This document shows positions 2,592 through 48,917 of a stretch of 64,000 bases of DNA, one piece after another (within the stretch, counting starts at the first letter, position 1; the number at the start of each line of letters is the position of its first letter). Under the pieces are notes generated by a model that saw nothing but the letters and a program-made list of their open reading frames with translations, searched no databases and had not been told where the DNA came from. The DNA lies in contig JBAZUY010000001.1 in assembly GCA_041661245.1 (NCBI GenBank), positions 64,491 through 128,490 on the forward strand, given 5' to 3'. The stretch comes from an archaeon (GTDB lineage: Archaea; Iainarchaeota; Iainarchaeia; Iainarchaeales; JAAZKV01). A program made the position numbers and the translations under genes.

Positions 2592-5048
2592 TTAACTTGT
2601 TCTACAATCTGCAGTGTTAGTAATTCCTTCCCATGCAAGCGGAGGATATCCGATTCCCTCACAAATGTTGCTCCAATTCTTATCAGCACCAAATGTCCAA
2701 GCATCCGTTCCAGTGTATACTGCATGAGTAATTGGGAAGAAAGTACTATCAGTTGTTGAATAGAAAGAATTTGTGACTGGGTCTTGGCCAGTATCTCCAC
2801 CAATTAAACCCCCACTCACATAATAACCATCAACCATAATTGGTCCAGTAGCAAAACAATTTGTAACAGCACCATAACTTCTACCAACTAATCCCCCAAC
2901 TTCAATACTCCCACTTGAAGTACCAGTTGAATAGGAATTTAAAATTGGAGGAGAACCATAACCGTACTGTTGACCTGTAAGCCCGCCAATGTTATATGTT
3001 CCAGAAACACTCGCAGTAGAGTAAGTATTAGAAACTCTTCCAGATGTTTGAGCCCCAATTAACCCACCAACATGCCAAGACCCTGACAACCCAGTAACTA
3101 CCCCAGTACTGTAACAAGCATTAACAACACCATAACTATTAATTCCAATTAATGCACCAGTATCATTAATTCCAGTCACATTAGCATCTACGAGACCAAT
3201 ATTTTTTATTGTACCATATTCATTCACACCAAACAAACCAACAGTATTCTGAGCTCTGTTAATATACAATCCATATATTTTGTGCCCCCCACCATCAAAT
3301 GTTCCTCTAAAACCACTAACTGTTTGAAGAGGCCCAATTGGAGCAAACCCATTTCCATCATTCCAAAAAACTCCGCCCGCATGAGTCGCAGTATACATGT
3401 TTAAATCTGTTGTCAGCAAATAGCTTGCCTGAAGATTTAATTGAATGTCATTCATGTCAAGCACATCATCAATCAAATAAGGGGACAACGCAGTTCCGCT
3501 TCCTCCGCAAATATGCCCAAGCGGACAAGAATCACAAGCATCACCAACACCATCCGAATCAGTATCTTTTTGAGAAGTATTTGGAACAGATAAACAATTA
3601 TCACAAGCATCACCAACACCATCATTATCAGAATCCTCTTGGCCAACATTTGAGACCAAAGCGCAATTGTCTTTTGAATTATTCAAATCATCCAAATCAA
3701 TATCCTCGACAAAAACTGGAAGAGAAGAACCACTCCAACTCCAAGGAATTCCCCAAGCTTGTGAAGAAGTATAAACTGCATGAGATGGAGAATACAAAAC
3801 GCTCTCTGATCCAACGTATGTTCCAAGACCATTATCAAAATCAGTAAAATATGAATTTGTTATTGTACCAACAGGAGTAAGATTTGCCCCTAGTAATCCA
3901 CCATAAGTTGAATTCACTCTAAGCCGACTCGTTGAAAAAGAATTAATTATACTCCCGCTACTTAATCGACCACTAATTCCTCCTCCAGAAGAGCCAGCAT
4001 TTACATCCCCTCGTGAATAAGAATTAATTATTCTCCCAAATACTCCCCCACTAATTCCTCCCGCACTACCCATTCTTGCATTAACATCAACATCCGAATA
4101 ACAATTTAGAATTTCCCCAGATCGTTGCATTCCAACAATTCCACCAACATACTGCGCGCCAATAACTGACCCGCTAACAAAACAATTTTGGAGTTTACCA
4201 TAATTAATGCCCGCGATTGATCCCGCAGTAATTCCTGTAGAATTAACGTTTACATCAATTAGTAAAATATTTTTTATAATACTACTATACCCTGGAGAAC
4301 TAAATAACCCCCTACTATTCCCCGAACCAATTTTTAATCCCATAATTTTATTCCATCTACCATCGAGTCCCCCATTAAATTGATTTGTGCCTGTTCCAAT
4401 CGGCACAAATCCGGCCGCAGTATTAAATGGATCCACATCACAATTAATGTCATTCATAAGAACATAATACCCGTTCAAATCATTCCAAATATTATTCAAA
4501 TCATTACAAGTTTGAATTTTATAAATATTTGAATAAGAAGAATCAGCGAATCTTGCGGTTAAAGGAAGAACTGGATTTCGAGCATTATTGGAATCCGCAT
4601 TCAAAACACATTCTACATTAGTAGTATAGGAATATTTTTTTTCAACCCCATACTTTGAACGAGTATAAACAATTAATTCACATTGCTTTTTTTTACTAGG
4701 AGAATCACAAACACAACCTGTTATTCCATTTAAAGAAAATGTTTTTTGCTCAATTTCTCCAAAATAAATATTATCATAAGGAACTTGCTTTCCGCCAAGA
4801 CTTATTTTTTCTATGGTAAGTGAATCCCCCGTATTATTTCCAAGAACTATTATTGCATTTCCAGAAGCATCCAACACTGAATCAGAAATTGAAATCGAAG
4901 AAGTTTTGTCACCCAAAGTAGACATGTTTGTTGAAGTATCCCCCGTATTTGTATTAGAGGACATTATCCCAACCACTACAAGAGAAAGAACAACTACTAC
5001 CCCAATTATTACAAGATACTCAACTGTACCCTGCCCCCGATTAAACAT
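2592..5048 (-). CDS. Surface adhesin with archaeal class III (pilin-type) signal peptide, two GLUG-motif repeat arrays and two thrombospondin type 3 calcium-binding repeats
   Basis: N-terminus is [29 protein letters not shown]. There are many GG(L/I)(I/V/L)G repeats (GGIVG, GGLLG, GGLIG, GGLTG, GGLVG). [14 protein letters not shown] and [14 protein letters not shown] lie between the two arrays. Confidence 0.75.
3531..3623 (-). repeat. Two copies of a 24-nt identical segment, 69 nt apart, encoding the TSP3 core DGVGDACD
   Basis: atcacaagcatcaccaacaccatc occurs at 3531-3554 and again at 3600-3623. Confidence 0.85.
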
Positions 5049-5141
5049 ACTAAACTAATGTTTCCAGAATATAAAAATCTAATTTTTAGTTAATTTTTTA
5101 AGTAATTAACTTTTATATACTTGGAAAAACACCATAAAGTA

Positions 5142-6098
5142 ATGAAAAATAAAGCACAAGTATTCTCACTAGAACATACCCTCTTACAAGGACATTCTTC
5201 CATTCGGGGGCAAGGAGCAATAGAATATTTACTAATAATCGGCGCTGCAATACTTGTTGTAGCAATAGTTACCCTCGCAATTACCTCTTTACTTGGCCAA
5301 GGCCAAACTCAAACTACAAGCGGAGCAAATGAACAAGGCAGTGCGCTAGGAGGATTAACAAGTCTTGCTTACGTAACAGTGTCTGGAAGTAATTATCAAA
5401 AATCAGATCCGATTGTAACTTCACTTAAATCAATGTGGACACTTAATGATGCAAGTACAATTACTGATTCGGTTGGAGGAATAAATGGAACTTGTGGTAC
5501 TGCATGCCCAACATTAATTAACGGAATATCAGGAAATGCATTTCATTTCACAAGTGGAAACACTGCACCTGAGCAATATATACTAATAGATAATATTCCA
5601 GCACCTAACGAAGTAACATATTCTACATGGTTTAGAACTTCGAGTACTGGGTACATTTCATCATTTCGCACATATAATGACCCAATATCTTTAGATCCGG
5701 ATAATCCAAATCATTGGAGAGGAAGCTTAAGCATCGATGCTTCAAACTATTTATTCTGGGAGGTTGGCTCTTGGACAAGCGCAGAATGTCCTTCCAACTC
5801 CTTGCACCTGCTCAAATCAAAAGAACCGATTACATTTAATGAATGGCACATGGCAACACTCACAGTGGATTATAATCCATTCATTGGAAAATTTTATCTT
5901 GACGGGGAATTACAAGCTACCCACAATGACGGAAAAGCATGCAGCAATAATTCAAACTATTTGTGGTTAGGAAGAAGAAAAATACTCGGGCAAGGAACAC
6001 CAACAAATTTTATTGGAGATATTGATGATTTTGCAATTTGGGATAGACAACTTACAAGCGATGAAATAAAAACACTTTATACTAATGCTAAGAAATAA
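5142..6098 (+). CDS. Class III signal peptide protein fused to a LamG/concanavalin-A-like lectin domain
   Basis: SSIRG/QGAIEYLLIIGAAILVVAIVTLAI pilin-type signal. The C-terminal block WHMATLTVD...LYLDGEL...FIGDIDDFAIWDRQLTSDEI is typical of Laminin_G_3 domains. First ATG is at 5142 (the track ORF starts at TTG 5121). Confidence 0.75.
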   Translation: MKNKAQVFSLEHTLLQGHSSIRGQGAIEYLLIIGAAILVVAIVTLAITSLLGQGQTQTTSGANEQGSALGGLTSLAYVTVSGSNYQKSDPIVTSLKSMWTLNDASTITDSVGGINGTCGTACPTLINGISGNAFHFTSGNTAPEQYILIDNIPAPNEVTYSTWFRTSSTGYISSFRTYNDPISLDPDNPNHWRGSLSIDASNYLFWEVGSWTSAECPSNSLHLLKSKEPITFNEWHMATLTVDYNPFIGKFYLDGELQATHNDGKACSNNSNYLWLGRRKILGQGTPTNFIGDIDDFAIWDRQLTSDEIKTLYTNAKK

Positions 6099-6162
6099 TT
6101 AATTAAAAAAATAAAATAAGCAAATGGTTTTTACCAAATGCTTATTTCAAATATTATCCCAC

Positions 6163-7158
6163 CTACTCGCGAATAGTTTCTTTTATTTTTGTTCCAAAGT
6201 GCATTCCTGCTTCCCCAACTTTAACAAGAACTTTGTCCCCAACTTTGAGGTCAGCTACAGAAATATGCTTTCCATCTTTTTGAATTAATCTAATTGTTTC
6301 AGCGTTTTGAAGAACAACTCCGGATTTATTTCCGTTAATTTCTGCTTCAACTAAAAGCAAAGGTCTTGTTTCAATTTTATTTCTCCCGATAATAATATTT
6401 TTTGCTTCCCCTTTGTAATTAATTGAAAGAGCTTCATCTCCGCTTTTTAATTCCATGGCATATTTTGTTTTTCCTTCGGGCAATAAAATATACGAATGAA
6501 CTGCACCGGCATTAACTCTAAAAGGACGAGTTGCACAATACTCAGCCTCATTTGATTCTGATTGAATTAAGAAAAGCATTTTTGGAGAATTCCCAACAAG
6601 CATTCCTTCCCCAACACTCATTAAATTACAAGTGTCAATGCAAGTTCTTTCTCCAGAACCAAGTACTTTTACTTCGGTAACAGTCGCCTCAACTAAATCA
6701 ACTGTGCCTGCACTTTTTGAAAATTCTTTTACAGCCGCCATAATCTCCGCTCGGTTTTTTGGTTTGATTATTACTCCTTTTACGCCTTGTTCCATCACAG
6801 AAAGCATTGTGGAAATATCTTGAACTCTGCAACCAACATAAACATTTGATGATTTTGAAATTAAATTCTCAAGAGGAATTATTTTCCAATCAGTAACATA
6901 AGCAATTACTGAACTTTTTTTTGCATACTCAAGTGCTTTATTTTCTTCTTCTTTTTTTGTAATTAATTGTTCAAAAATATCTTTTCCCAAAACTCTATCC
7001 CCGTCTTCGGAAATAGTTTCAATTCTCCCGAGTTTATGAACTTGTTCGGTTGTACCTTTTGGAACGATTATTGTTCTTATCCCCGCTTCAAGAGCAGAGG
7101 TAACAAGTTCCTTTTTGTAAGGTCTAATGTCAATGATTAATTCTTTTCCTGTTGTCAT
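6163..7158 (-). CDS. aroB': 3-dehydroquinate synthase II (archaeal type)
   Basis: About 330 aa with N-terminal KELVTSALEAGIRTIIVP. It is adjacent to and co-oriented with the ADH synthase gene, as in the archaeal alternative shikimate entry. Confidence 0.75.
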   Translation of the reverse strand: MTTGKELIIDIRPYKKELVTSALEAGIRTIIVPKGTTEQVHKLGRIETISEDGDRVLGKDIFEQLITKKEEENKALEYAKKSSVIAYVTDWKIIPLENLISKSSNVYVGCRVQDISTMLSVMEQGVKGVIIKPKNRAEIMAAVKEFSKSAGTVDLVEATVTEVKVLGSGERTCIDTCNLMSVGEGMLVGNSPKMLFLIQSESNEAEYCATRPFRVNAGAVHSYILLPEGKTKYAMELKSGDEALSINYKGEAKNIIIGRNKIETRPLLLVEAEINGNKSGVVLQNAETIRLIQKDGKHISVADLKVGDKVLVKVGEAGMHFGTKIKETIRE

Positions 7159-38048: not shown

Positions 38049-38279
38049 TTAATCAGAATCAAAATCTTCTTCATCACTGCCGGAAGATGCTTCTTCTTCC
38101 TCTTCTTCCATTTCGAATTCTTTACTTTCAATAAGTTTCAAAGCGCCCTTTTTGTCGGCAATTACAGTGTACTCTAGGTTACATTCAGAGCAAGCAACTG
38201 CATCTCCTTCTTCAAGGTCATCAATATTAACCTCAAATCTTGCCTTACATTCAGTGCATAATTTCTTCATTGAAGCCAT
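38049..38279 (-). CDS. LysW/ArgW-like zinc-ribbon protein with extended acidic C-terminal tail (76 aa from ATG 38279)
   Basis: MASMKKLCTECKARFEVNIDDLEEGDAVACSECNLEYTVI has the LysW layout: CxxC, then E.GD.V.CxxC, then an E-x-x-V beta strand. The tail is EFEMEEEEEEASSGSDEEDFDSD. The upstream part of the 102-aa track ORF overlaps the TATA box and is probably not coding. Confidence 0.6.
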   Translation of the reverse strand: MASMKKLCTECKARFEVNIDDLEEGDAVACSECNLEYTVIADKKGALKLIESKEFEMEEEEEEASSGSDEEDFDSD

Positions 38280-38301
38280 ACTTATTTTCCACCCATTTTC
38301 C

Positions 38302-38309
38302 TTTATAAA
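38302..38309 (-). promoter_or_regulatory. TATA-box-like element for the LysW-like gene
   Basis: tttataaa is centred about 26 nt upstream of ATG 38279. Confidence 0.35.
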
Positions 38310-38417
38310 CCTTTCCAAAATGGTCAAAAAATGCATTAAAATTAGTTTAAATGGCAAAATAAGAGAACGAGCTTAGTTAGGATAAGGGAAAAAGCTTAAT
38401 TTTGCCCCGTGTGGGTA

Positions 38418-38975
38418 CTAAAGAAGAGAAAGGATTATCCCTAAGGTTAAACCATAGAGAATAGTAAGAATAATCCAATTCAAAGCTAACTTTGATCCAG
38501 TTACTCCAAGTACGACTTTAAGCAGTTTATATGATCCTACAAGCCAAGCCACTGTTAGAATTATTGAGAATAATATGAATAAAACTCCTAAAAACATTAA
38601 GAGCCCAGAACTAACCATTGGACCAAAAAGAGCTGTAAGAGCGAAAACCAAAGCCCCAACTAAATTAATCGCCCATAGCTTTCCAACAACTGACAAACAT
38701 TGAGCATAACTTATTCCAATTAAGCGCTTTTTCTTTCTAACATGAACAAATTCAAAAAACCAAACAAATCCTGAAAAAAGCAACCATTCTGCAAAATTCA
38801 ATAATACAAAGTATATGCTCGTGTAAATATTTGCTGAAATAAAGAAAGAGGCAAGAGCCATTAATATTCCGGAAATCAAAACAATTCCAAACGCCCCCTT
38901 AATATCCTCGTTATGGAAAGCATCCTCAAAAGCTTTTGTTGGACTGAATAAAACACTAGCACACATATTTATCAC
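38418..38975 (-). CDS. Polytopic membrane protein (Yip1-domain-like, tentative)
   Basis: N-terminal LFSPTKAFEDAF, then five TM helices. Confidence 0.4.
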   Translation of the reverse strand: MINMCASVLFSPTKAFEDAFHNEDIKGAFGIVLISGILMALASFFISANIYTSIYFVLLNFAEWLLFSGFVWFFEFVHVRKKKRLIGISYAQCLSVVGKLWAINLVGALVFALTALFGPMVSSGLLMFLGVLFILFSIILTVAWLVGSYKLLKVVLGVTGSKLALNWIILTILYGLTLGIILSLL

Positions 38976-39035
38976 TAAATTATCATTTACTATAAGGCAA
39001 TTACTCCTATTTAAAGCTAATTCTTGCCCACCAAA

Positions 39036-39575
39036 TCATAATTCTTTTTTCATTAAACAGTTATCAACATATTTTTCATTAATTAGAGCTGCTTTTTTCA
39101 ATAACCCGTATTTTGAAAATCCAAGTTTTTTATAAAGCAAAATTGCAGGTTTATTTTTTGAATCAACTGCCAAAAGAACAAGTGTTTTGGACCCAGGTAA
39201 ATTCTTCAAAGTGAATTCCATTAAACCAATTCCAATACGATGACGACGATGAGAAGACTCAACAACAAGCGAAGAAATTTCAGCCCTGTGCTTATGTAAA
39301 CCTTTGCCGAAAACTACTTTGACATGCGCAACAATTCTTCCATTTTCTAGTGCAACAAATCGCTTATCAATTCCCTTAATAGTAGCACTTAATTTTTTTT
39401 GAACAGAAGATTTTTTCCAGTGCGGAAACAGAGCATGCACCTCGGAAATAGTGTTCAAATTTAATTCAGAGAGTTCTCCAAATATAATTCCGTCAAGCGA
39501 AGCTTTTGGGGAATTAATTTCATTTTTGGCACCCGCCAAAGGAAGATTATGCCCCAAAGCCATAATTTTAATCAA
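39036..39575 (-). CDS. GNAT-family N-acetyltransferase
   Basis: ISSLVVESSHRRHRIGIGLMEF (motif A) and LLYKKLGFSKYG. Its start overlaps the stop of the upstream protease gene by 4 nt. Confidence 0.7.
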   Translation of the reverse strand: MIKIMALGHNLPLAGAKNEINSPKASLDGIIFGELSELNLNTISEVHALFPHWKKSSVQKKLSATIKGIDKRFVALENGRIVAHVKVVFGKGLHKHRAEISSLVVESSHRRHRIGIGLMEFTLKNLPGSKTLVLLAVDSKNKPAILLYKKLGFSKYGLLKKAALINEKYVDNCLMKKEL

Positions 39576-40018
39576 CTCCTTTGTTTCTTTGCCAAATCAC
39601 TCTTTAGTTGGAGTCTTACTCGTTCGTTAGCATCTTTTGAGTCCCCAACTTTATTACTAGTATGAGTTTTTGAAACATCAATCAAAAAATTATTGTGAAT
39701 AATATCTCTTCCAATTAAAACTGAATAAGGCAAACCTTCTCTATCTTCAATATTTACTCCAGTTTTAATTTTCTTACCTTTAACAATAATAATTGCTTCA
39801 GCAATTGCTCTTCTTGTATAACCCCGAGGAGAAGAAGCACTCTTTATTTTAACACTTGAAATAATTGGTCCAACCCCTGCTTTAGCAGCGGTACGAACAT
39901 CAATACAAGTTCTTGTAGCACCAGTATCAAAAAGAGCTTTTTTTATTATAACTCCTTTCTTCCCCTTTATTCGAACCAAATCAACTAAACCAATTATTTT
40001 TTTTCCTTTGCTCATCAA
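39572..40018 (-). CDS. DUF785 / RimB-like retropepsin-fold protease (family historically named ATP-dependent zinc protease)
   Basis: ALFDTGATRTCID (DTGA), SASSPRGYTRRAI and EDREGLPYSVLIGRDIIHNNFLIDVS match the family usually encoded next to rimK. Confidence 0.7.
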   Translation of the reverse strand: MMSKGKKIIGLVDLVRIKGKKGVIIKKALFDTGATRTCIDVRTAAKAGVGPIISSVKIKSASSPRGYTRRAIAEAIIIVKGKKIKTGVNIEDREGLPYSVLIGRDIIHNNFLIDVSKTHTSNKVGDSKDANERVRLQLKSDLAKKQRS

Positions 40019-40096
40019 ATCAAATCATACTTATAAGGAAAACCGTATTATTAACCCTTTTGGGAAGGTTTTTACAAAAATCAAAAAGCAAAACCT

Positions 40097-40104
40097 TTTA
40101 TAGG
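40097..40104 (+). promoter_or_regulatory. TATA-box-like element for the plus-strand ATP-grasp operon
   Basis: ttttatag lies 27-34 nt upstream of ATG 40131, inside the 112-nt divergent intergenic region. Confidence 0.35.
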
Positions 40105-40130
40105 AATGGATACACAGTAGCATTTGTTAC

Positions 40131-41048
40131 ATGGACATACTAATACTCGCGGAGAAAAAGAAAAATGCTGAAATGTTCGTGAGCGCAATTAAGGCAAAAG
40201 GCCATAATGCAACCTATATTCGCTTGTCCAAAATAATATTAGTCAGCAAACAAAATGAGAGCTTAATAAAATCTAAGGGAGAGGAATTAGCCCCCTATGA
40301 TGCAGTATTTATCCAAGCAAGAACTACCCTTGCCCCATTCATAGAGCCATTACTTGACCAATTAGAATCAGAAGGCTGCTACACCACTTCTAAAAAAGGC
40401 TCGTATTATATTGGAATGAACGAACCATACCAATTTGTAACCCTTTCTGTTGCAAAAGCACCAATACCAAAATCAATTACTTCAGGAAATGCAAAAAACA
40501 TTGAACACTTGTCAAAAAAACTAACTTACCCGTTACTTGCAAAATCCTTTATTGGAAGAACTGTCCAACAAGCAATCGTAGTAAACAACGCAAGAGCGCT
40601 AAATAGTTACATTAAAAGTATAAAAACAGAGATTGACGGATTCATGTTACGCCAATTCTCCAAAGCAGACATCATTTCGAGTGTAATGATTGGAAAAAAA
40701 ATATTCTCGGTGAAAAGAAAATTTACTGACGGAATAACTGCTGAAATTAGCGAAGGAAAAATTTACAAAGTAAGTGAGAGTGAAACAAAAACCATTTTCT
40801 CAGCAGCAAAAGCCTGCGGGTATGATATTGCAAGAGTAGATTTGTGTAAAGGAAAAATTGTGAAAGTTGATCCAATAATACCTTGGACGGATTTTAATAA
40901 GATTTGCTCAGAAAGAATTGAAGATTATGTGGCGGATTTTTTAATTGAACAAGCTATCCAAAATGAAGGAAAAAGAAAAGTTAAATATGATTTCCTAGGA
41001 TTAAGAAAAATATTTGGAAAAACTATTCTTGGGTGGTTATTCAAATGA
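40131..41048 (+). CDS. RimK-like ATP-grasp paralog with degenerate nucleotide-binding motifs
   Basis: Same length and layout as the next gene. However, the glycine-rich loop reads YPLLAKSFIGRTVQQAIVV, the RxN..GG block is missing, and only ARVDL and KVDP remain. Confidence 0.55.
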   Translation: MDILILAEKKKNAEMFVSAIKAKGHNATYIRLSKIILVSKQNESLIKSKGEELAPYDAVFIQARTTLAPFIEPLLDQLESEGCYTTSKKGSYYIGMNEPYQFVTLSVAKAPIPKSITSGNAKNIEHLSKKLTYPLLAKSFIGRTVQQAIVVNNARALNSYIKSIKTEIDGFMLRQFSKADIISSVMIGKKIFSVKRKFTDGITAEISEGKIYKVSESETKTIFSAAKACGYDIARVDLCKGKIVKVDPIIPWTDFNKICSERIEDYVADFLIEQAIQNEGKRKVKYDFLGLRKIFGKTILGWLFK

Positions 41049-41974
41049 CTCCCACAAAAATAATTTTCCCAGAACACACTCAAATACAAAAAGAAAATAA
41101 GAGTCTTTTAATAATCGGGTCAAAAACTTACAAACAATCAACCGTAAACATGCTTCTTGAAGAAGCAAAAAAGAAATTTTCAAATGTAATGTTTGTCCCA
41201 ATCGACAAAATACAAATACTTTCAGTTGAAGGAAAAACTGAACTCATTTACAAGGACAAAAACCTTCTTGAATTTGATGCAATTTACCCAAGACTTTCTT
41301 CAAGAGACTTTTTACTAGGAGAAGCGGTACTGAAAACAATTGAGAATAGCAAAGCATACTGCCCAGTAAATCTATCTGCATACCAAATATCAAATCATAA
41401 ATTTTATACCTCAAAAAAATTATCAAATCAAGGAATACCTGGGATTACAAGTACTTTATTTATTTCCCCAAAATATGCAGATTATGCCGTGGACGAAACA
41501 GGGTATCCTTTTGTAATGAAATTAATCTCAGGATTTGCAGGAAAAGGAGTTGTATTAATTAACTCTAAAGAACAAATGGAAAGCATACTTGAAGCAGTAC
41601 ACCTCTTTGAAGAATTTATTTCAACCCAAAAATTCATTAAGGGAAAAGACTCGGATGTACGATGCTATGTTATTGGAGATTATGTAATTGCAGTAAAAAG
41701 AAAATGTAAAAAAGGAGATTGGAGAGCAAACATTTCAAGAGGAGGAAGTGCAAGTCTAATTAATCCAACTCCCGAAATGCTAAATATTGCAAAAACAAGT
41801 GCAAAAGCACTTGGAATGGATTTGTGCTCAGTAGATTTAATGGAATACAAGAAAAAATGGGTAGTAATAGAAGTAAACTTTATGCCAGGACCTTTTAGAA
41901 AATTCCTCGGAAGCATGATTGCACAACAATGGATAAGATTTTTGTTTGAAAAATCAGGTAAGAACCAAAAATAA
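41045..41974 (+). CDS. RimK/LysX-family ATP-grasp ligase (canonical motifs)
   Basis: YPFVMKLISGFAGKGVVLI, DVRCYVIGDYVIA, WRANISRGGSA, CSVDLME...VIEVNFMPG. ATG 41045 overlaps the upstream TGA (ATGA). Confidence 0.8.
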   Translation: MTPTKIIFPEHTQIQKENKSLLIIGSKTYKQSTVNMLLEEAKKKFSNVMFVPIDKIQILSVEGKTELIYKDKNLLEFDAIYPRLSSRDFLLGEAVLKTIENSKAYCPVNLSAYQISNHKFYTSKKLSNQGIPGITSTLFISPKYADYAVDETGYPFVMKLISGFAGKGVVLINSKEQMESILEAVHLFEEFISTQKFIKGKDSDVRCYVIGDYVIAVKRKCKKGDWRANISRGGSASLINPTPEMLNIAKTSAKALGMDLCSVDLMEYKKKWVVIEVNFMPGPFRKFLGSMIAQQWIRFLFEKSGKNQK

Positions 41975-42036
41975 ACCAAGAGTCAAATAAAAAGCAATAT
42001 TAACTTCGCGTATGCTTACATATTACAGGCGATATT

Positions 42037-43173
42037 ATGCGATTTTTCAATTACACCCTTATTGATCAAAAAATCTGCCAACTAGCCGGCGCTATTGAAA
42101 CTAATCTACTAACTTACATTAACCCTCAAAATCTTGGAGAACAAAAGAAAAAATTCTTTGAATCCTTAAACAAAAATGAACAATATAACCCAGTTTTTAC
42201 TTACGCGTCAAGAAATCCACTTTATACATATTTTGACATGAATCCCAATTTTAAAATATACCAAAATGAATTAAAGGAATTAATTAAAGACCTCGGGGAA
42301 GACTCATTAGGAATAATATTTGAAAAAAAAATAATTGATCTTTTTGAGAGAATGGAACTAGTACGAAGCGTAGGAACCGAAAACTTTGCAGGAAACTCCG
42401 AATCCTATTATGGCACTGTGGACCCCCAAACATTAAGAAGAGCTAAAGAGTTATTGTCAAAAGAAATTGTTCTTGAGGAGAAAAAAATTCACTTTGATGA
42501 AGCGAAAAAAGTAATTGAAGCATTTTTGAAAAAGAAAAAACTCAATTACAAAGTAAAACAACGAGAAACTGAAAACGGAGCAAAATTTTCAGTAAATATA
42601 AGAACAAAAGAAATCTTCATTAACAAGGATGTGTTCTTTTCTGAAAATACACTCCGAAGACTTATTGCTCACGAAATAGAAGGACACGTTTACCGATATG
42701 AAAATGGACTCCTGCAGCCATATGGAATATTTTCAAGAGGATTATCAAAAGAAACACTTGAAACGGAAGAAGGCCTTGCAGTTTATATTGAACAACAACA
42801 AAAAATTAATATTGATGCCCAACTCAAAGAATATGCTGGAAGAGTCATGGCTATTACTACCGCATCAAAGAAAAGTTTCTTTGAAACATTTGAAGAAATG
42901 AACAAATACTTTTCACAAGAAGACTCCTTCACACTCGCGCTCCGAGCAAAAAGAGGAACATGGAAACAAGATGTTGGAAGTGCTTTTACAAAAGATGCAC
43001 TTTACTTAAAAGGGCTGCTATTGGTTGAAGACTTTTTGAAAGACCAAAAAGTTGAAACCCTTTACCACGGAAGATATTCCATAAACGACACCCCATTGGC
43101 TTTGGATATTGCGGGACTTGTAAAACCAGCACATCTGCCAGAGTGCTTAAAGAAAGAGAGCGCGAGAACATGA
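42037..43173 (+). CDS. DUF1704 / MATCAP-like metallocarboxypeptidase (QEGLA-motif family)
   Basis: IAHEIEGHV (HExxxH) followed by ETEEGLAVYIE (EGLA motif); length about 378 aa. Confidence 0.65.
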   Translation: MRFFNYTLIDQKICQLAGAIETNLLTYINPQNLGEQKKKFFESLNKNEQYNPVFTYASRNPLYTYFDMNPNFKIYQNELKELIKDLGEDSLGIIFEKKIIDLFERMELVRSVGTENFAGNSESYYGTVDPQTLRRAKELLSKEIVLEEKKIHFDEAKKVIEAFLKKKKLNYKVKQRETENGAKFSVNIRTKEIFINKDVFFSENTLRRLIAHEIEGHVYRYENGLLQPYGIFSRGLSKETLETEEGLAVYIEQQQKINIDAQLKEYAGRVMAITTASKKSFFETFEEMNKYFSQEDSFTLALRAKRGTWKQDVGSAFTKDALYLKGLLLVEDFLKDQKVETLYHGRYSINDTPLALDIAGLVKPAHLPECLKKESART

Positions 43174-44240
43174 TTTCAATAGATGATTCAACGAAAATCA
43201 AAAACATTAAACCACTTACTCTTCAAGCCCTACAAAAAGTGTTTGACCTCTATGAGATTACCCCGAAAAGCAATGTGCTTTTGTGGAGCAATACAAGCAA
43301 AAATAAGGTTTCTGAAAAACTAGCAAAAACATTTCTCCAAAGACTCAATCAACTCGGGTGCACCACATCTGTAATAATTGAAAAAGAAAAAACAAAACTG
43401 GGCCCAGCATCAAAAAAAACCCAAAAATGTATTCTTTCATTGACCCAGGGGGATATCTTTATTTCAATAGGCGCAGGAAATAGGGGATACGTGGAACAGA
43501 ATGGAAAACATGTTTTAATGAGAAAACTCATGAAAAAACAAGGGTTTAGGATGGTTTCTCTTGGAGGACTGGATTCAATAAAACTGCATAGAATAAATTC
43601 ATTTTTTGAAAGTTTTAATCATAATCAAAAAGAAATTAACTCCCTCAATAAAAAAATCAAAAATCTTTTAGAAAAAACAAAAACAATCAAAATTACTTGC
43701 CCAAAAGGAAGTAACTTAACAATGGAACTTAATAAAAACCCCGTGATTTCAAACGATGGAAACTGGAAAAAATACTCCACAAACTACCCAATAGGCGAAG
43801 TATACACCGCACCGAAAGAAGATTCCTGCAATGGAATTGCATTTGTTTCAAGCGCAAAGGTTTCTGGAAAAACTATTCTGCCCAAAAAACCAATAAAATT
43901 TATTTTTGAAAAAGGCTTACTTAAATCCACAAATAGCAAAGAAATTAACTCAAATCTAAAATATGTGGAGAAATTCAATAAAAAAAATAATATATTAAAT
44001 TGGAAAACCGCACCCCGAACAATTGCTGAGTTTGCTATTGGAACAAATAGAAAAGCAAGTATTGTGGGCGCAATGATTTGTGATGAAAAAACTCTGGGCA
44101 CTTGCCACTTTGCCATAGGAAACAATAAACACCTTGGAGGAAAAACTTACTGCCACGGACACTTTGATAACGTAATAAAAAATCCCACAATATGGTTTGA
44201 TGGAAAAAAAATAATGACAAATGGAAAACTTTTATTTTGA
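43170..44240 (+). CDS. M29-family (AmpS/PepS-like) aminopeptidase
   Basis: YPIGEVYTAP, EFAIGTN, CDEKTLGTCHFAIGNN, HGHFD. ATG 43170 overlaps the upstream TGA (ATGA). Confidence 0.7.
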   Translation: MISIDDSTKIKNIKPLTLQALQKVFDLYEITPKSNVLLWSNTSKNKVSEKLAKTFLQRLNQLGCTTSVIIEKEKTKLGPASKKTQKCILSLTQGDIFISIGAGNRGYVEQNGKHVLMRKLMKKQGFRMVSLGGLDSIKLHRINSFFESFNHNQKEINSLNKKIKNLLEKTKTIKITCPKGSNLTMELNKNPVISNDGNWKKYSTNYPIGEVYTAPKEDSCNGIAFVSSAKVSGKTILPKKPIKFIFEKGLLKSTNSKEINSNLKYVEKFNKKNNILNWKTAPRTIAEFAIGTNRKASIVGAMICDEKTLGTCHFAIGNNKHLGGKTYCHGHFDNVIKNPTIWFDGKKIMTNGKLLF

Positions 44241-45178: not shown

Positions 45179-45595
45179 TTACTTAAATTCCAAAATATCC
45201 CTATATTTTACTAACGGAGTATCTTTTGATTTAATAAAAATTGACCCCTCTTCATTAGCCAAAAGCTCTTCAACAGAATTTGAACCCACTTTCAAATCCA
45301 TAATCGTTAATTCTTTCCCATTTAGTTTAGCCTTCATTTTTTTCTTTAATTTACCGCACTCAACAAACCCCAAAACCATTGTAAGAGTCCCAGTATCATA
45401 GACCCCCGAAACTTTGAATCTATTAAATTGTTTTGCTTTTTGTAAAAACACTTCTCCGGAAGTTTCTCTATCCTTCGCACCATTTTTTACATGATTAGGA
45501 ATTAGAACTGAAGAATCCTCTGCCCCGCCAAGAATCATATCCTCTTCGGATTGAACAGAATCATTCTTTTTCTTTAAAAAATCAAACAAACCCAT
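45179..45595 (-). CDS. Hypothetical protein (C-terminal half resembles a translation-factor domain-2-type beta barrel)
   Basis: 138-aa ORF; the GFVECGKLKKKMKAKLNGKELTIMDLKV pattern is only a weak resemblance. Confidence 0.4.
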   Translation of the reverse strand: MGLFDFLKKKNDSVQSEEDMILGGAEDSSVLIPNHVKNGAKDRETSGEVFLQKAKQFNRFKVSGVYDTGTLTMVLGFVECGKLKKKMKAKLNGKELTIMDLKVGSNSVEELLANEEGSIFIKSKDTPLVKYRDILEFK

Positions 45596-45797: not shown

Positions 45798-45872
45798 ATG
45801 GCTCCAAAAAGTAAAGCAAAACCAAAAGCAAAAGCGGCTAAAAAAAGTGGCGGATGTTGCTGCTGCCAATAA
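45798..45872 (+). CDS. Micro-ORF 1: 24-aa polybasic peptide MAPKSKAKPKAKAAKKSGGCCCCQ
   Basis: gaggtga Shine-Dalgarno lies 6 nt upstream of the ATG. The ORF has its own terminator hairpin 19 nt after the stop. It is below the ORF-track size cutoff. Confidence 0.55.
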   Translation: MAPKSKAKPKAKAAKKSGGCCCCQ

Positions 45873-46035: not shown

Positions 46036-46086
46036 ATGGCAGCAAAAAAGAAAAAAGCAGTTAAGAGAAAAGCTAAGAAAAAATAA
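46036..46086 (+). CDS. Micro-ORF 2: 16-aa polybasic peptide MAAKKKKAVKRKAKKK
   Basis: ggggtga lies 8 nt upstream of the ATG, and TATA-like cttatatatt about 60 nt upstream. A strong terminator hairpin follows 26 nt after the stop. Confidence 0.5.
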   Translation: MAAKKKKAVKRKAKKK

Positions 46087-46324: not shown

Positions 46325-47749
46325 ATGTTTCAAAAAGAAGAACAAGAAAAAAATCACGATCAAAACTCAGAAAAAAATTCTGTTCAACAGGATTCTGAAA
46401 CTAAAAATGGTAACGGTAACGGACACGACGAAACAAAAGTAAAAACAAAACAACCTTTTGAATCAAAAAAATTCTTATTCGTTTCAATAGATGCACTAAT
46501 CACAGACATCGCATGGCAGGTAAAGAAAGAAGGACATGAGGTAAAATACTATATTGAAGACAAAGGCGAAAATGAAGTTGGGGACGGATTCGTTGAAAAG
46601 GTAACTGACTGGGAAAAAGAAGTTGATTGGGCGGATGTAATTGTTTTTGATGATGTTTTAGGACACGGAAAAAAAGCCAAAGCAATGAGAGATAGAGGAA
46701 AAAAAGTTGTAGGCGGAACACCATATACTGATCGATTAGAGGATGAAAGAGCATTTGGACAAGAAGAATTAGTGAAATACGGAATACCAGTAGCACCATA
46801 CAAAGATTTTACTAAATTTGATGATGCAATTCAATTTGTAAAGGATAACCCTGGAAAATATGTAATAAAACCAAGCGGAGAAGCGCAAAACAACAAAGGA
46901 CTATTGTTTATCGGTGAAGAAGAAGATGGAAAAGATGTTATCCAAGTATTAATGGATTACAAAAGTGCTTGGCAAAAGAAAATACCTGATTTTCAACTCC
47001 AAAAGAAACTCAGCGGAGTAGAAGTTGCGGTAGGAGCATTCTTCAATGGAAAAGAATTCATTTACCCAGTAAACATTAACTTTGAACACAAAAAATTATT
47101 TCCTGGAAACCTTGGACCCTCAACAGGAGAAATGGGAACTACAATGTTCTGGACTGGTCCGAACAAATTATTTAACTCAACTCTAAAAAAGTTCGAACAA
47201 AAGTTTGCAGAAGAAAACTATGTAGGGTATATTGACATTAATTTTATAGTAAACACTAACGGAATATATCCCCTTGAATGGACTTCACGCTTCGGATATC
47301 CAACAATAAGTATCCAGCAGGAATCATTCATTACCCCTATTGGAGAATTTTTATACGATTTAGCAAACGGTAACAACCCAAAACTTAAAGTAAAGAGCGG
47401 ATTCCACATAGGAGTAAGAATAGTAGTACCTCCCTTCCCATTCGATGATGACAAAACTTTTGAAGTAAAGTCAAAAGACTCAATAATATTTTTGAAGAAA
47501 CCAAATTATGAAGGAATACACTTAGAAGATGTAAAAATGGTTAATGATGAATGGCTAGTAACAGGAAACACAGGGGTAATACTAATCGTTTGCGGAAGCG
47601 GACAGACAATGAGACAAGCTCAAAAACAAGCATACAGCCGAATAAAAAATATTCTAATACCCCACATGTACTACCGAACAGATATTGGGGACAGATGGTT
47701 TGAAGACTCGGATAAATTAACTACTTGGGGATATTTAAGAGAAGCTTAA
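46325..47749 (+). CDS. PurD (GAR synthetase)-like ATP-grasp enzyme with low-complexity N-terminal extension
   Basis: KYVIKPSGEAQNNKGLLF and FEHKKLFPGNLGPSTGEMGT parallel the PurD blocks (IKADGLAAGKG, DHKR..DGD.GPNTGGMG). The N-terminal GGREHA motif is absent. No other pur genes are in the window. Confidence 0.6.
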   Translation: MFQKEEQEKNHDQNSEKNSVQQDSETKNGNGNGHDETKVKTKQPFESKKFLFVSIDALITDIAWQVKKEGHEVKYYIEDKGENEVGDGFVEKVTDWEKEVDWADVIVFDDVLGHGKKAKAMRDRGKKVVGGTPYTDRLEDERAFGQEELVKYGIPVAPYKDFTKFDDAIQFVKDNPGKYVIKPSGEAQNNKGLLFIGEEEDGKDVIQVLMDYKSAWQKKIPDFQLQKKLSGVEVAVGAFFNGKEFIYPVNINFEHKKLFPGNLGPSTGEMGTTMFWTGPNKLFNSTLKKFEQKFAEENYVGYIDINFIVNTNGIYPLEWTSRFGYPTISIQQESFITPIGEFLYDLANGNNPKLKVKSGFHIGVRIVVPPFPFDDDKTFEVKSKDSIIFLKKPNYEGIHLEDVKMVNDEWLVTGNTGVILIVCGSGQTMRQAQKQAYSRIKNILIPHMYYRTDIGDRWFEDSDKLTTWGYLREA

Positions 47750-47808
47750 TAATAACTGATTTCAAAAAATGTTTTTTTAACTAGTGCTCGACACGATTTT
47801 TGTGTTAA

Positions 47809-48294
47809 ATGATTGGTATGAATCATGAGAAAGAAAAAGTTATTCAAAAAATAAAGAATACTTACTGTCGAATAATGCCTTCAAAGCTTCACGGCGTTGG
47901 AGTATTTGCGATAAGAGACATCCCAAAAGATATAAATCCATTCGGGATAGAAACAAAACAAAAATGGGTCCGAGTTCACTTAAAAGACCTTGGCGAAATA
48001 CACCCAAACCTTAACGAGATGATAGAAGCATTTTATGTAATAAAAAAAGACGGAAGTGTATGGATAAACTCAGGCGGACTCGGATCAATTGGAATATCCT
48101 TTTACATGAACACTTCAAAAAACCCAAACATGAAAACAATTGATGAAGGATTTACTTTTATTACAAGCAAAGAAATAAAATGCGGGGAAGAGTTGCTCGC
48201 AGATTATGGAGAATTCGACTGGAAATACAAGCAATCCGAGAAAGATAAAACAAAAACTAAATTGATAAAGAAAAACAAAACTAAAGGCAAGTAA
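47809..48294 (+). CDS. SET-domain protein (divergent) with lysine-rich tail
   Basis: LHGVGVFAIRDIPKD, FYMNTSKNPNM (degenerate NHSxxPN), GEELLADYG. Confidence 0.55.
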   Translation: MIGMNHEKEKVIQKIKNTYCRIMPSKLHGVGVFAIRDIPKDINPFGIETKQKWVRVHLKDLGEIHPNLNEMIEAFYVIKKDGSVWINSGGLGSIGISFYMNTSKNPNMKTIDEGFTFITSKEIKCGEELLADYGEFDWKYKQSEKDKTKTKLIKKNKTKGK

Positions 48295-48327
48295 AAAAAT
48301 GGAAGAATTAACTGCGAAGATGATCTT

Positions 48328-48756
48328 ATGAAATATCCCTCAAAAGTAATTAAAATTTCTTACGGCAAAGCACTAGTTGCAACAAAAGATTTACCTGCAG
48401 GGACAGTTGTTCAAAAATTTGAAGGAGAAATAATGACTTACAAAGAAGTTCCCGAGGATATGGTTTGCCATGCGATTTGCGTTGGAGAAGAAAACGAGGA
48501 TAAATGGGTTGTTTCAAAAACAGATGCAATTTATGCCAATCATGCATGCGAACCAAACTGCGAAGTTGGGGATGATTTAAACATCATAACCATAAAAGAA
48601 GTAAAAAAAGACGAAGAACTAACATTTGTTTACAATGAACTTAGTCCTGAAGAACGAGAAGCAGAGTTCTTGTGGGATAAAAAATGGGACTTTGAATGCA
48701 AATGCGGCAGTAAAAACTGCCAAGGAAACATTAACAAATACGTAAAAAGAAAATAA
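48328..48756 (+). CDS. SET-domain protein-lysine methyltransferase with post-SET Cys motif
   Basis: GKALVATKDLPAGTVV, YANHACEPNCEV, DEELTFVYN, CKCGSKNCQG. Confidence 0.85.
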   Translation: MKYPSKVIKISYGKALVATKDLPAGTVVQKFEGEIMTYKEVPEDMVCHAICVGEENEDKWVVSKTDAIYANHACEPNCEVGDDLNIITIKEVKKDEELTFVYNELSPEEREAEFLWDKKWDFECKCGSKNCQGNINKYVKRK

Positions 48757-48917
48757 CTTTGTTAGATATATCAAACGCTATTTCTTTCACAAAAATATAA
48801 GAAAAAGCGCTGAGGCCGAGCGCAGGTTAAAACAACCTGTAGCACAGCTTCGAGGGAAGAACGACGTTTTGCGAGGTTTAAACATGCCCTAAGAATAATA
48901 CTCTCTTTGTCATATAT

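Follow-up and report, generated by a model that had tools for sequence, protein, structure and literature searches.

This locus raises the question of what a purD-like gene is doing in an archaeal chromosome where no pur gene lies near it and two genes for SET-domain proteins, putative methyltransferases, follow it on the same strand. The genes lie in a 64-kb stretch of DNA from an archaeon of the order Iainarchaeales (genome G000), which we refer to as the window. A preliminary description had listed three open reading frames (ORFs), a ligase and then two SET genes, without neighbouring pur genes; all three were present, and the window ORFs and their Pfam matches gave no pur gene near the ligase. 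We call the ligase and its relatives PurDL (PurD-like ATP-grasp ligase), the two SET products SET1 and SET2, and the orthogroup of SET1 SET-A. The answer we arrive at is that the ligase is probably an ATP-grasp carboxylate-amine ligase of PurD descent that has lost glycinamide ribonucleotide (GAR) synthesis and has SET-A as a partner.

The 474-amino-acid ligase matches the Pfam families GARS_A (63.5 bits) and GARS_C (35.8 bits), and no Pfam match to GARS_N or to a RimK or TTL ATP-grasp domain was found in it. Against TIGR00877, the NCBIfam equivalog model of PurD, it scores 113.5 bits, below the cut-off of 288, and only model positions 82-424 align. The PurD-like ATP-grasp block quoted in the preliminary description (FEHKKLFPGNLGPSTGEMGT) is present and the N-terminal GGREHA signature is missing, as was stated there: the ligase has VSIDALITDIAW at the position of the canonical GSGGREHA and reads FVSIDALITDIAW in place of the canonical PurD GSGGREHAL; the GGREHA loop of PurD corresponds to SIDALITDIAW. 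The low-complexity N-terminal extension, previously put at 50 amino acids, is real and comprises the first ~44 residues, homologues starting at about residue 45. Neither the PROSITE pattern PS00184 (R-[LF]-G-D-P-E) nor the E-x-N magnesium motif is found. The ligase has EWTSRFGYPT, in which Asp, Glu and Asn are all substituted (RFGDPE to RFGYPT and E-x-N to E-x-T), and the Thr that replaces Asn is nearly invariant family-wide.

Individual residues were mapped using a HMMER alignment to Aquifex PurD and the residue list of PMC8880213. K103, K143, E192, D212 and K214 of the Aquifex enzyme correspond to R142, K182, E233, E254 and K256 of the ligase, and E283, R287, N285, D290 and E292 correspond to E318, R322, T320, Y325 and T327 respectively. 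A comparison of 40 diverse members, with identities down to 31%, showed no variation at E139, R142, K182, E233, E254, E318, R322 and R451, and K256 and T320 are nearly invariant in the same set. The ligase thereby retains the residues that bind ATP and Mg and handle the acyl-phosphate (K182, E233, K256, E318 and R322), and with them the hallmarks of the ATP-grasp superfamily. E254 aligns with the PurD Asp that contacts the glycine amine, and both residues aligned with the glycine site (E254 and R322) are kept. Because the catalytic residues are invariant across 40 diverse members, the ATP-grasp chemistry of the ligase looks intact.

The fold agrees with this descent. An AlphaFold2 model of the ligase, made with 40 diverse homologues, reached a predicted local distance difference test score (pLDDT) of 95.9 and a predicted template modelling score (pTM) of 0.92, and the top 15 PDB matches found by Foldseek were all GAR synthetases (TM-score 0.72-0.78; 18-23% identity), with biotin carboxylases next; model and matches together give the four-domain PurD fold. 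Many PurDL members are interrupted by inteins (LAGLIDADG/Hint). These sit at about query residue 272, past the GEMGT motif; some copies are interrupted near residue 321, within EWTSRFGYP, and one protein has two inteins. The first site is filled in at least 10 of 50 DPANN genomes (G023, G045, G061, G063, G065, G068, G126, G130, G141 and G175), and the intein-bearing representatives are P0002, P0121, P0123 and P0125. Since the catalytic residues are invariant, the predicted PurD fold is confident and the inteins sit at catalytic loops, the ligase is likely to be active as an ATP-grasp carboxylate-amine ligase.

Its relatives are numerous and widespread. A word-based search returned more than 7,500, the best 120 of which are 70-84% identical, come from DPANN archaea, bacteria of the Candidate Phyla Radiation (CPR), Planctomycetes and others, and in many cases bear the name phosphoribosylamine-glycine ligase. 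A genome scan added Acidobacteriota, Gemmatimonadales, Cytophagales, Spirochaetes and one gammaproteobacterium at 66-77% identity. One clade remains 67-84% identical across DPANN, CPR, Acidobacteriota, Gemmatimonadales, Cytophagales and Planctomycetes, and pairwise identities within PurDL level off at 67-75% independently of phylum or domain. An exhaustive search of representatives gave 529 clusters (50% identity) at E<=1e-30, extending to ~31% identity and full length throughout, and the gene was present in 50 of the 215 genomes of a phylum sample.

Canonical PurD and PurDL co-occur in genomes of Cyclobacteriaceae, Ekhidna, Acidobacteriota, Gemmatimonadales, Steroidobacteraceae and Peregrinibacteria, scoring 420-572 and 80-118 bits, respectively, against TIGR00877, and four DPANN genomes from the order to which the window belongs also have both; for bacteria and DPANN overall the two ranges are 420-577 and 80-127 bits. 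All PurDL fell on one long branch of the tree, apart from PurD. Judged by these comparisons, PurDL is a separate, monophyletic and very large family. The earlier view that the ligase is not PurD is upheld by the low equivalog score, the coexistence and the separate branch, and the expectation that such proteins would be mislabelled as purD was equally justified, public sources naming close homologues as noted above. Neither a characterization of the family nor an ATP-grasp/SET operon was found in the literature; a Burkholderia paper naming both gene types was set aside, the loci there being unlinked.

Both window SET proteins exceed the Pfam SET cut-off of 22.4 bits. SET2 carries the motifs NHACEPN and ELTFVY and the post-SET cluster CKCGSKNC listed in the preliminary description, and thus the NHxCxPN, ELxF/YxY and post-SET Cys signatures of SET lysine methyltransferases, and among PDB sequences it matches SETD2 and NSD2 best, in their SET/post-SET regions. 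Orthologues of SET2 in the genus are 62-79% identical and stand in the same position after SET1; a weaker second SET also comes after SET-A in some metagenome loci. SET1 is a candidate lysine methyltransferase. Its profile matches the SET domains of KMT2C/D and it keeps the Tyr of GEELLADY, but it has no post-SET region, and NTS stands in place of NHS both in the window copy and in two orthologues from the genus. As to what archaeal SET enzymes act on, the statement that they methylate MC1 and Cren7/Sul7d holds for the first, MC1 being methylated by a Methanosarcina SET enzyme, and not for the others, as Cren7/Sul7d methylation in Sulfolobus is attributed to aKMT, a non-SET enzyme.

Relatives of SET1 are encoded beside PurDL far outside the genus. 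SET1 is 33% identical (E 1e-16) to the SET protein downstream of PurDL in L109, a metagenome-assembled genome labelled Janthinobacterium lividum, 37% identical to that downstream of P0129 (L113) and 27% identical to the SET domain fused in P0201, and SET-A proteins have in common the motifs HG[VI]GVFAIRDIPxGxNPF, N[HT]SxxPN and GEELxxDY. P0201 is a PurDL 34% identical to the window ligase, with a C-terminal SET domain and a separate SET gene upstream; its locus is of high GC content, its close relatives are labelled Sphingomonadales, Hyphomicrobiales or Janthinobacterium, and three of its relatives carry the same fusion. Stand-alone PurDL genes of the P0201 clade have a directly adjacent SET gene in L108, L109 (one on each side) and L110.

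A reciprocal metagenome scan with the SET-A alignment gave 80 loci, 38 of them with PurDL, almost always at -43 to +123 nt from SET-A. The gene orders were SET-A then PurDL (17), PurDL then SET-A (10), convergent (6) and divergent (2). PurDL was present in 20 of the 31 informative loci, that is, those with at least 1.5 kb on both sides, and in 30 of the 42 closest SET-A relatives, and SET1 was the best match of 78 metagenome SET ORFs. The window shows the same pairing, with a SET-A orthologue directly beside PurDL. Because SET-A adjoins PurDL in 20 of 31 informative loci and is fused to PurDL, we regard the link between ligase and SET as real; going by gene order and fusion, the partnership of SET-A with the PurDL family is specific and recurrent, and in some cases extends to a fused protein. 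The functional link of a leading ligase with SET proposed at the outset has gained from this, since loci of CPR, DPANN and Proteobacteria-like origin that are unrelated to one another place SET-A beside PurDL, in several orders and, in one lineage, as a fusion. The ATP-grasp-SET-SET order as such had a mixed outcome: it is kept in the genus and the SET-A pairing recurs in distant lineages, but it is absent at 83 loci of the window ligase's own type. Four loci (L275, L276, L277 and L245) have SET-A preceded by a 795-amino-acid protein and no PurDL; this protein combines an ATP-grasp region of L-amino-acid-ligase type with one of D-Ala-D-Ala-ligase type. On these arrangements SET-A is a recurrent partner of predicted amide-forming ATP-grasp ligases, above all PurDL.

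Two further features of the SET-A loci were noted. The 4078-nt metagenome contig L248 carries two consecutive SET-A/PurDL pairs, a tandem duplication. A treble-clef zinc-finger protein of ~60 amino acids (Pfam zf_Tbcl_2) is encoded in 13 CPR-like metagenome loci (including L244, L250, L257 and L266), in at least five of them directly upstream of a pair in the order SET-A, PurDL; it may be a candidate partner or reflect synteny within the lineage.

Within PurDL, proteins encoded beside SET-A are 52-67% identical to the window ligase. SET-adjacent members form clade S (support 0.92), which takes in all the remaining PurDL of the window's genus and those of the sister genus, and the SET-free main type forms clade M, in which a few SET-adjacent members occur, mostly near the base. 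The window ligase pairs with P0001 (84% identical, support 1.0) deep in clade M. Its identity is 73-84% with PurDL of other DPANN families and of bacteria, but only 55-58% with the copies in the same position in its own genus (loci L084-L088). The contig encoding P0001 (L317) has a tRNA-Leu gene and p138, a divergently oriented neighbour, upstream as in the window, with no lysine-rich micro-ORFs and no downstream SET gene. Based on these identities, the tree, the genus synteny and the sharing of tRNA-Leu and p138 by L317 without SET, the most likely course of events is a recombination in the shared flank that exchanged the resident clade-S gene for a clade-M allele and left SET1 and SET2 intact. 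The in-place replacement in turn suggests that clades M and S are interchangeable and perform the same chemistry, and the window would amount to a natural experiment, a SET-linked ligase having been swapped in place for one of the SET-free clade.

What this chemistry might be is indicated by further genes at PurDL loci (the counts of partner genes are small and raw, with kinship ignored). An LPG_synthase_C-type transferase is encoded in or beside the SET-A/PurDL pair in five SET-A loci, and another PurDL locus has the order PurDL, LPG_synthase_C, arginase family. GNAT and Acetyltransf_6 genes lie directly downstream of PurDL in DPANN loci, and a Haem_oxygenas_2 (PF14518) gene and an MTS/NPPY methyltransferase gene lie beside PurDL in the Proteobacteria-like loci L108, L110 and L115. 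We propose that the ligase would activate a small amino-acid-type carboxylate as an acyl-phosphate, for which E254 and R322 are retained, and would pass the acyl group to a primary amine other than phosphoribosylamine (PRA). The accepting amine would be of the lysine type, an aminoalkyl chain. A lysine-type amine is our best inference for the substrate because the partners comprise SET, GNAT, FemAB/LPG-synthase-type transferases, the arginase family, PF14518 and the NPPY methyltransferase. SET-A would N-methylate the same substrate or the product. Since the enzyme moves among archaea, bacteria and phage infections, its substrate should be universal, either a small metabolite or a conserved macromolecule, and we lean slightly towards a free metabolite (lysine, ornithine or a polyamine-like compound) over a lysine of a widely conserved protein, with neither given an even chance. 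Only tentatively would we extend this to a full pathway, in which PurDL and SET-A, with an LPG-synthase-C-like transferase in some cases, could install and methylate an aminoacyl group on a lysine-type amine of a universal target, the pathway being shared by horizontal transfer among DPANN, CPR and Proteobacteria-like lineages, and podovirus-like phages using the ligase alone in a virion-associated form.

Several points weigh against this proposal. The window copy lies outside the SET-linked clade S and belongs to the SET-free clade. None of 83 clade-M-type loci has a SET gene within 6 kb, and no SET was found at any phage locus checked. A SET gene is altogether absent from most clade-M genomes; SET is therefore not needed for the core function of the ligase, and a dependence of the family on SET was not borne out. 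Conversely, one DPANN genome has SET-A without PurDL, either adjacent or, at E<=1e-60, elsewhere. The adjacency of mobile genes can reflect joint transfer rather than joint function, and each partner gene behind the amine theme was seen in few loci. For the small-molecule version, all SET enzymes known to us act on proteins. No PurDL member has a solved structure.

Transcription signals belong to the same side of the balance. The 59 nt that separate the PurDL stop codon from SET1 contain a run of seven T, which may be an archaeal termination signal or the A/T-rich promoter box of a leaderless SET1 mRNA. A/T-rich boxes occur ~30 nt before the starts of both SET1 and SET2 (stretches 47770-47808 and 48291-48327) and would fit separate leaderless archaeal transcripts. 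The T-run and the separate boxes suggest that PurDL, SET1 and SET2 are perhaps carried on several transcripts.

These points could be taken to mean that ligase and SETs are unrelated neighbours, brought together by inherited or co-transferred gene order, with the ligase carrying out its ordinary task independently of SET and the SETs methylating chromatin or other proteins on their side. The SET-free clade-M loci and genomes, the membership of the window ligase in that clade and the possibility that each gene has its own promoter and terminator signals all speak for such an explanation, as does the 215-genome phylum sample, in which strong SET-A was present only in one genus and in one PurDL-less genome. 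We nevertheless consider it unlikely: four different arrangements bring SET-A next to PurDL in distantly related lineages, P0201 and three of its relatives are fusions of the two, and chance is not a credible reason for two rare genes to be adjacent in 20 of 31 informative loci.

Clade M itself yielded no alternative partner. Conserved neighbours of the main-type ligase were sought at the 83 loci retrieved with the window ligase; none was common across phyla, and no homologue of SET1, SET2, MATCAP, M29 or HAD was found there. Among the Acidobacteriota loci L039-L081, a hypoxanthine phosphoribosyltransferase-like gene lies downstream of PurDL in the same orientation in 19 and a DeoC-like gene in 16, both assigned by reading of the sequences; this arrangement is confined to loci labelled Acidobacteriota or Acidiferrales.

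PurDL is also encoded by phages. A degenerate DNA motif for EHK-x4-G-x-L-G-x2-TGE-x-GT was scanned against IMG/VR, and at least 120 contigs, possibly including some cellular fragments, matched; of these, 80 were taken for study, and all 80 encode real PurDL (190-570 bits with the family hidden Markov model). Single-protein searches of the viral contigs gave one locus each. Upstream of most phage PurDL genes (80 loci) lies a conserved run that includes a head-closure/stabilization protein (phrog_578, Pfam Phage_stabilise), a 'DNA ejection' protein (phrog_598) and large Gly/Gln-rich proteins; a tail-fibre-like gene, a T4-type lysozyme and small membrane proteins come after PurDL. The phage contig L107 encodes a 1236-amino-acid portal-PurDL-MuF fusion (2818-6528) between terminase and capsid genes, and the same type of phage is represented in L112 and L139. 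One could therefore see PurDL as a phage-derived conflict effector, delivered with the virion and modifying a host target at DNA entry, whose cellular copies are domesticated or prophage-borne. The abundance of viral copies, their constant slot between head-closure/ejection-type genes and tail fibre and lysozyme, the portal fusion, and the patchy distribution, frequent inteins and xenologue replacement of the family are all compatible with that view, which we nonetheless hold to be rather unlikely. Cellular clade M is strongly conserved across phyla and sits in ordinary chromosomal contexts, neither PHROGs nor PADLOC gave a match for the ligase or for either SET, and packaging in the virion is itself hypothetical.

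Closer to the window, the preliminary description had taken two lysine-rich micro-ORFs upstream of the ligase as possible substrates, so that ligase and SETs would act on these micro-peptides, or on further small basic proteins of chromatin type in this archaeon. Both micro-ORFs share the strand of the ligase gene, which they precede by 240-530 nt; lysines are methylated by SET enzymes, and the first micro-ORF has a 96%-identical copy upstream of PurDL in L085 (genome G026), where a similar polybasic ORF (MVAKKKVVKKKAAKKC, L085 7454-7504) is also found. No counterparts were detected in the other loci among L001-L116 scanned or in L317, the contig of the window ligase's closest relative, and tblastn gave no match in the 80 SET-A loci. 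The sole comparable polybasic ORF in the scanned loci outside the genus, in L006, lies ~1.3 kb upstream on the opposite strand and was not counted as a PurDL neighbour. A mobile, 70%-conserved and phage-carried enzyme is unlikely to depend on genus-specific peptides, and the micro-peptide model is improbable.

Other genes around the ligase are likewise local. The block RimK-like, p313, MATCAP, M29, p138, PurDL, SET1, SET2 is kept in the GTDB genus, which could on its own be explained by simple inheritance. Identities of p138 in tblastn were 44-79% in the genus loci and 47% in L317; p138 is a neighbour, and its membership of the ligase-SET system is not supported. Micro-ORFs, p138 and RimK/MATCAP are neighbours of PurDL only within the genus.

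The purine route of the host genome bears on the remaining explanation. G000 and its genus carry PurDL only, with no canonical PurD. Using the purine cluster of the relative G050 (purL, F, D, H, N, A, E, C, B, M) as queries, we recovered from G000 nothing beyond PurF (50% identity), GlyA, one protein resembling PurM (28%) and PurDL (24%); purL, N, H, A, E, C and B were not found with these queries, purC being checked too. The ligase is therefore not the sole PurD of a genome with a de novo purine pathway. Of purF, purN and purM, which had been named as genes to look for elsewhere in the genome, PurF and a PurM-like protein are present, but purN is absent and the pathway incomplete.

Both genes lie outside the window. 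An orphan PurF (amidophosphoribosyltransferase) is encoded on contig C1 (750755-752143, minus strand) and scores 385.8 bits against a cut-off of 350. It is kept in 18 of the 22 genus genomes tested, G000 included (17 above the cut-off), is present in 10 relatives without PurDL (nine of the same genus and one of the sister genus) and was not found in the PurDL-only genomes G008, G009, G011, G012 and G033. Co-occurrence of PurF and PurDL as a hint at a PRA substrate was rejected, PurF being present or absent independently of PurDL. The divergent PurM-like protein (AIRS and AIRS_C; C1:306982-308070, minus strand) scores 198 bits against a purM cut-off of 236; its gene adjoins gatCAB outside any pur cluster and also occurs in G029, and its co-occurrence with PurDL was rejected as not general. 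A genuine but divergent GAR synthetase, using PurF-made PRA for a truncated purine or thiamine-precursor route, could claim the PurF and PurM-like proteins, the full PurD fold and the retained glycine-site-aligned E254 and R322, yet it is highly improbable in view of the family-wide substitution of GGREHA, RFGDPE and the Asn of E-x-N, the coexistence with canonical PurD in purine prototrophs, the missing pathway genes of G000, the independent distribution of PurF, and the precedent of the haloarchaeal 'extra PurD-like' proteins rrnAC0307 and Hlac_1553, for which a role as GAR synthetases was likewise rejected (Brown et al., 2011; PMC3261824).

Table. Features of the PurDL-SET locus (all ORF and T-run positions, and those of the A/T boxes in the text, are positions of the 64-kb window)
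Feature	Position	Strand	Remarks
PurDL (PurD-like ATP-grasp ligase), 474 aa	46325..47749	+	main-type clade M; core = residues 45-474
SET1, 161 aa, SET-A orthogroup member, recurrent PurDL partner	47809..48294	+	Pfam SET 31.0 bits
SET2, 142 aa, canonical SET and post-SET Cys cluster	48328..48756	+	Pfam SET 43.9 bits
Seven-T run between PurDL stop and SET1 start	47770..47779	+	read from sequence
p138, divergently oriented upstream neighbour of PurDL, no Pfam family	45179..45595	-	tblastn against genus loci and L317
Lysine-rich micro-ORF 1, MAPKSKAKPKAKAAKKSGGCCCCQ	45798-45872	+	sequence
Lysine-rich micro-ORF 2, MAAKKKKAVKRKAKKK	46036-46086	+	sequence
RimK / RimK-MATCAP tail-modification cluster	38049-44240		2-8 kb upstream of PurDL-SET genes

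Past SET2, a GC-rich stretch (48805-48892) lies in the convergent intergenic region.

Thousands of public and metagenome genes labelled purD belong to the PurDL family, and this mislabelling inflates predictions of purine biosynthesis in CPR/DPANN symbionts as well as lists of phage 'auxiliary metabolic genes'. PurDL is among the most conserved accessory proteins common to archaea, bacteria and phages (~70% identity across domains). The SET partner and its occasional fusion offer a starting point for experiments, and SET-A would, if our proposal is true, be a rare prokaryotic SET enzyme with a defined pathway context.

PurD itself (EC 6.3.4.13; TIGR00877; PDB 1GSO, 2YW2 and 2YS6) is the closest known system. 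It has the four-domain fold in common with PurDL over the full length, together with the same catalytic Lys/Glu/Arg set, the GxxTGxMG loop and the C-terminal YRxDIG motif. PurDL differs in being only ~20-25% identical, far under the equivalog cut-off and without a GARS_N match, in coexisting with true PurD, in occurring in phages, and in having a SET partner and no purine context. The haloarchaeal extra PurD-like proteins show the same deviations (no GARS_N, an altered Mg site and loss of the R[LF]GDPE Asp) and, from their description, presumably belong to the same family; PMC3261824 gave no function, distribution or partners for them.

The eukaryotic protein TTLL12 is the only named combination of a SET-type and an ATP-grasp ligase region in one protein that we found, and in this resembles the PurDL-SET fusion P0201. 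Its ATP-grasp region is of TTL type and not PurD type, the domain order is opposite to that of P0201, with no evidence of common descent, and TTLL12 is reported not to catalyse histone methylation (PMC3520985). Within the window, the RimK/RimK-MATCAP cluster is another ATP-grasp ligase system, kept with the PurDL-SET genes in the genus; it differs in having no link to PurDL or SET-A outside the genus, and PurDL has no RimK Pfam match.

The nearest parallels in chemistry are enzymes of ATP-grasp or Fem type that acylate a lysine epsilon-amine, namely the D-aspartate ligase Aslfm, FemX/MurM, and PylC of pyrrolysine synthesis. They belong to other ATP-grasp subfamilies, related to PurDL at the superfamily level only, and act on free lysine or on precursors of peptidoglycan (murein), a polymer that DPANN archaea lack. 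What they would share with the proposed PurDL reaction is an amide made on a lysine-type amine, either by an ATP-grasp ligase or by an aminoacyl-tRNA transferase with the FemAB/LPG-synthase fold, and both of these enzyme classes are found beside PurDL.

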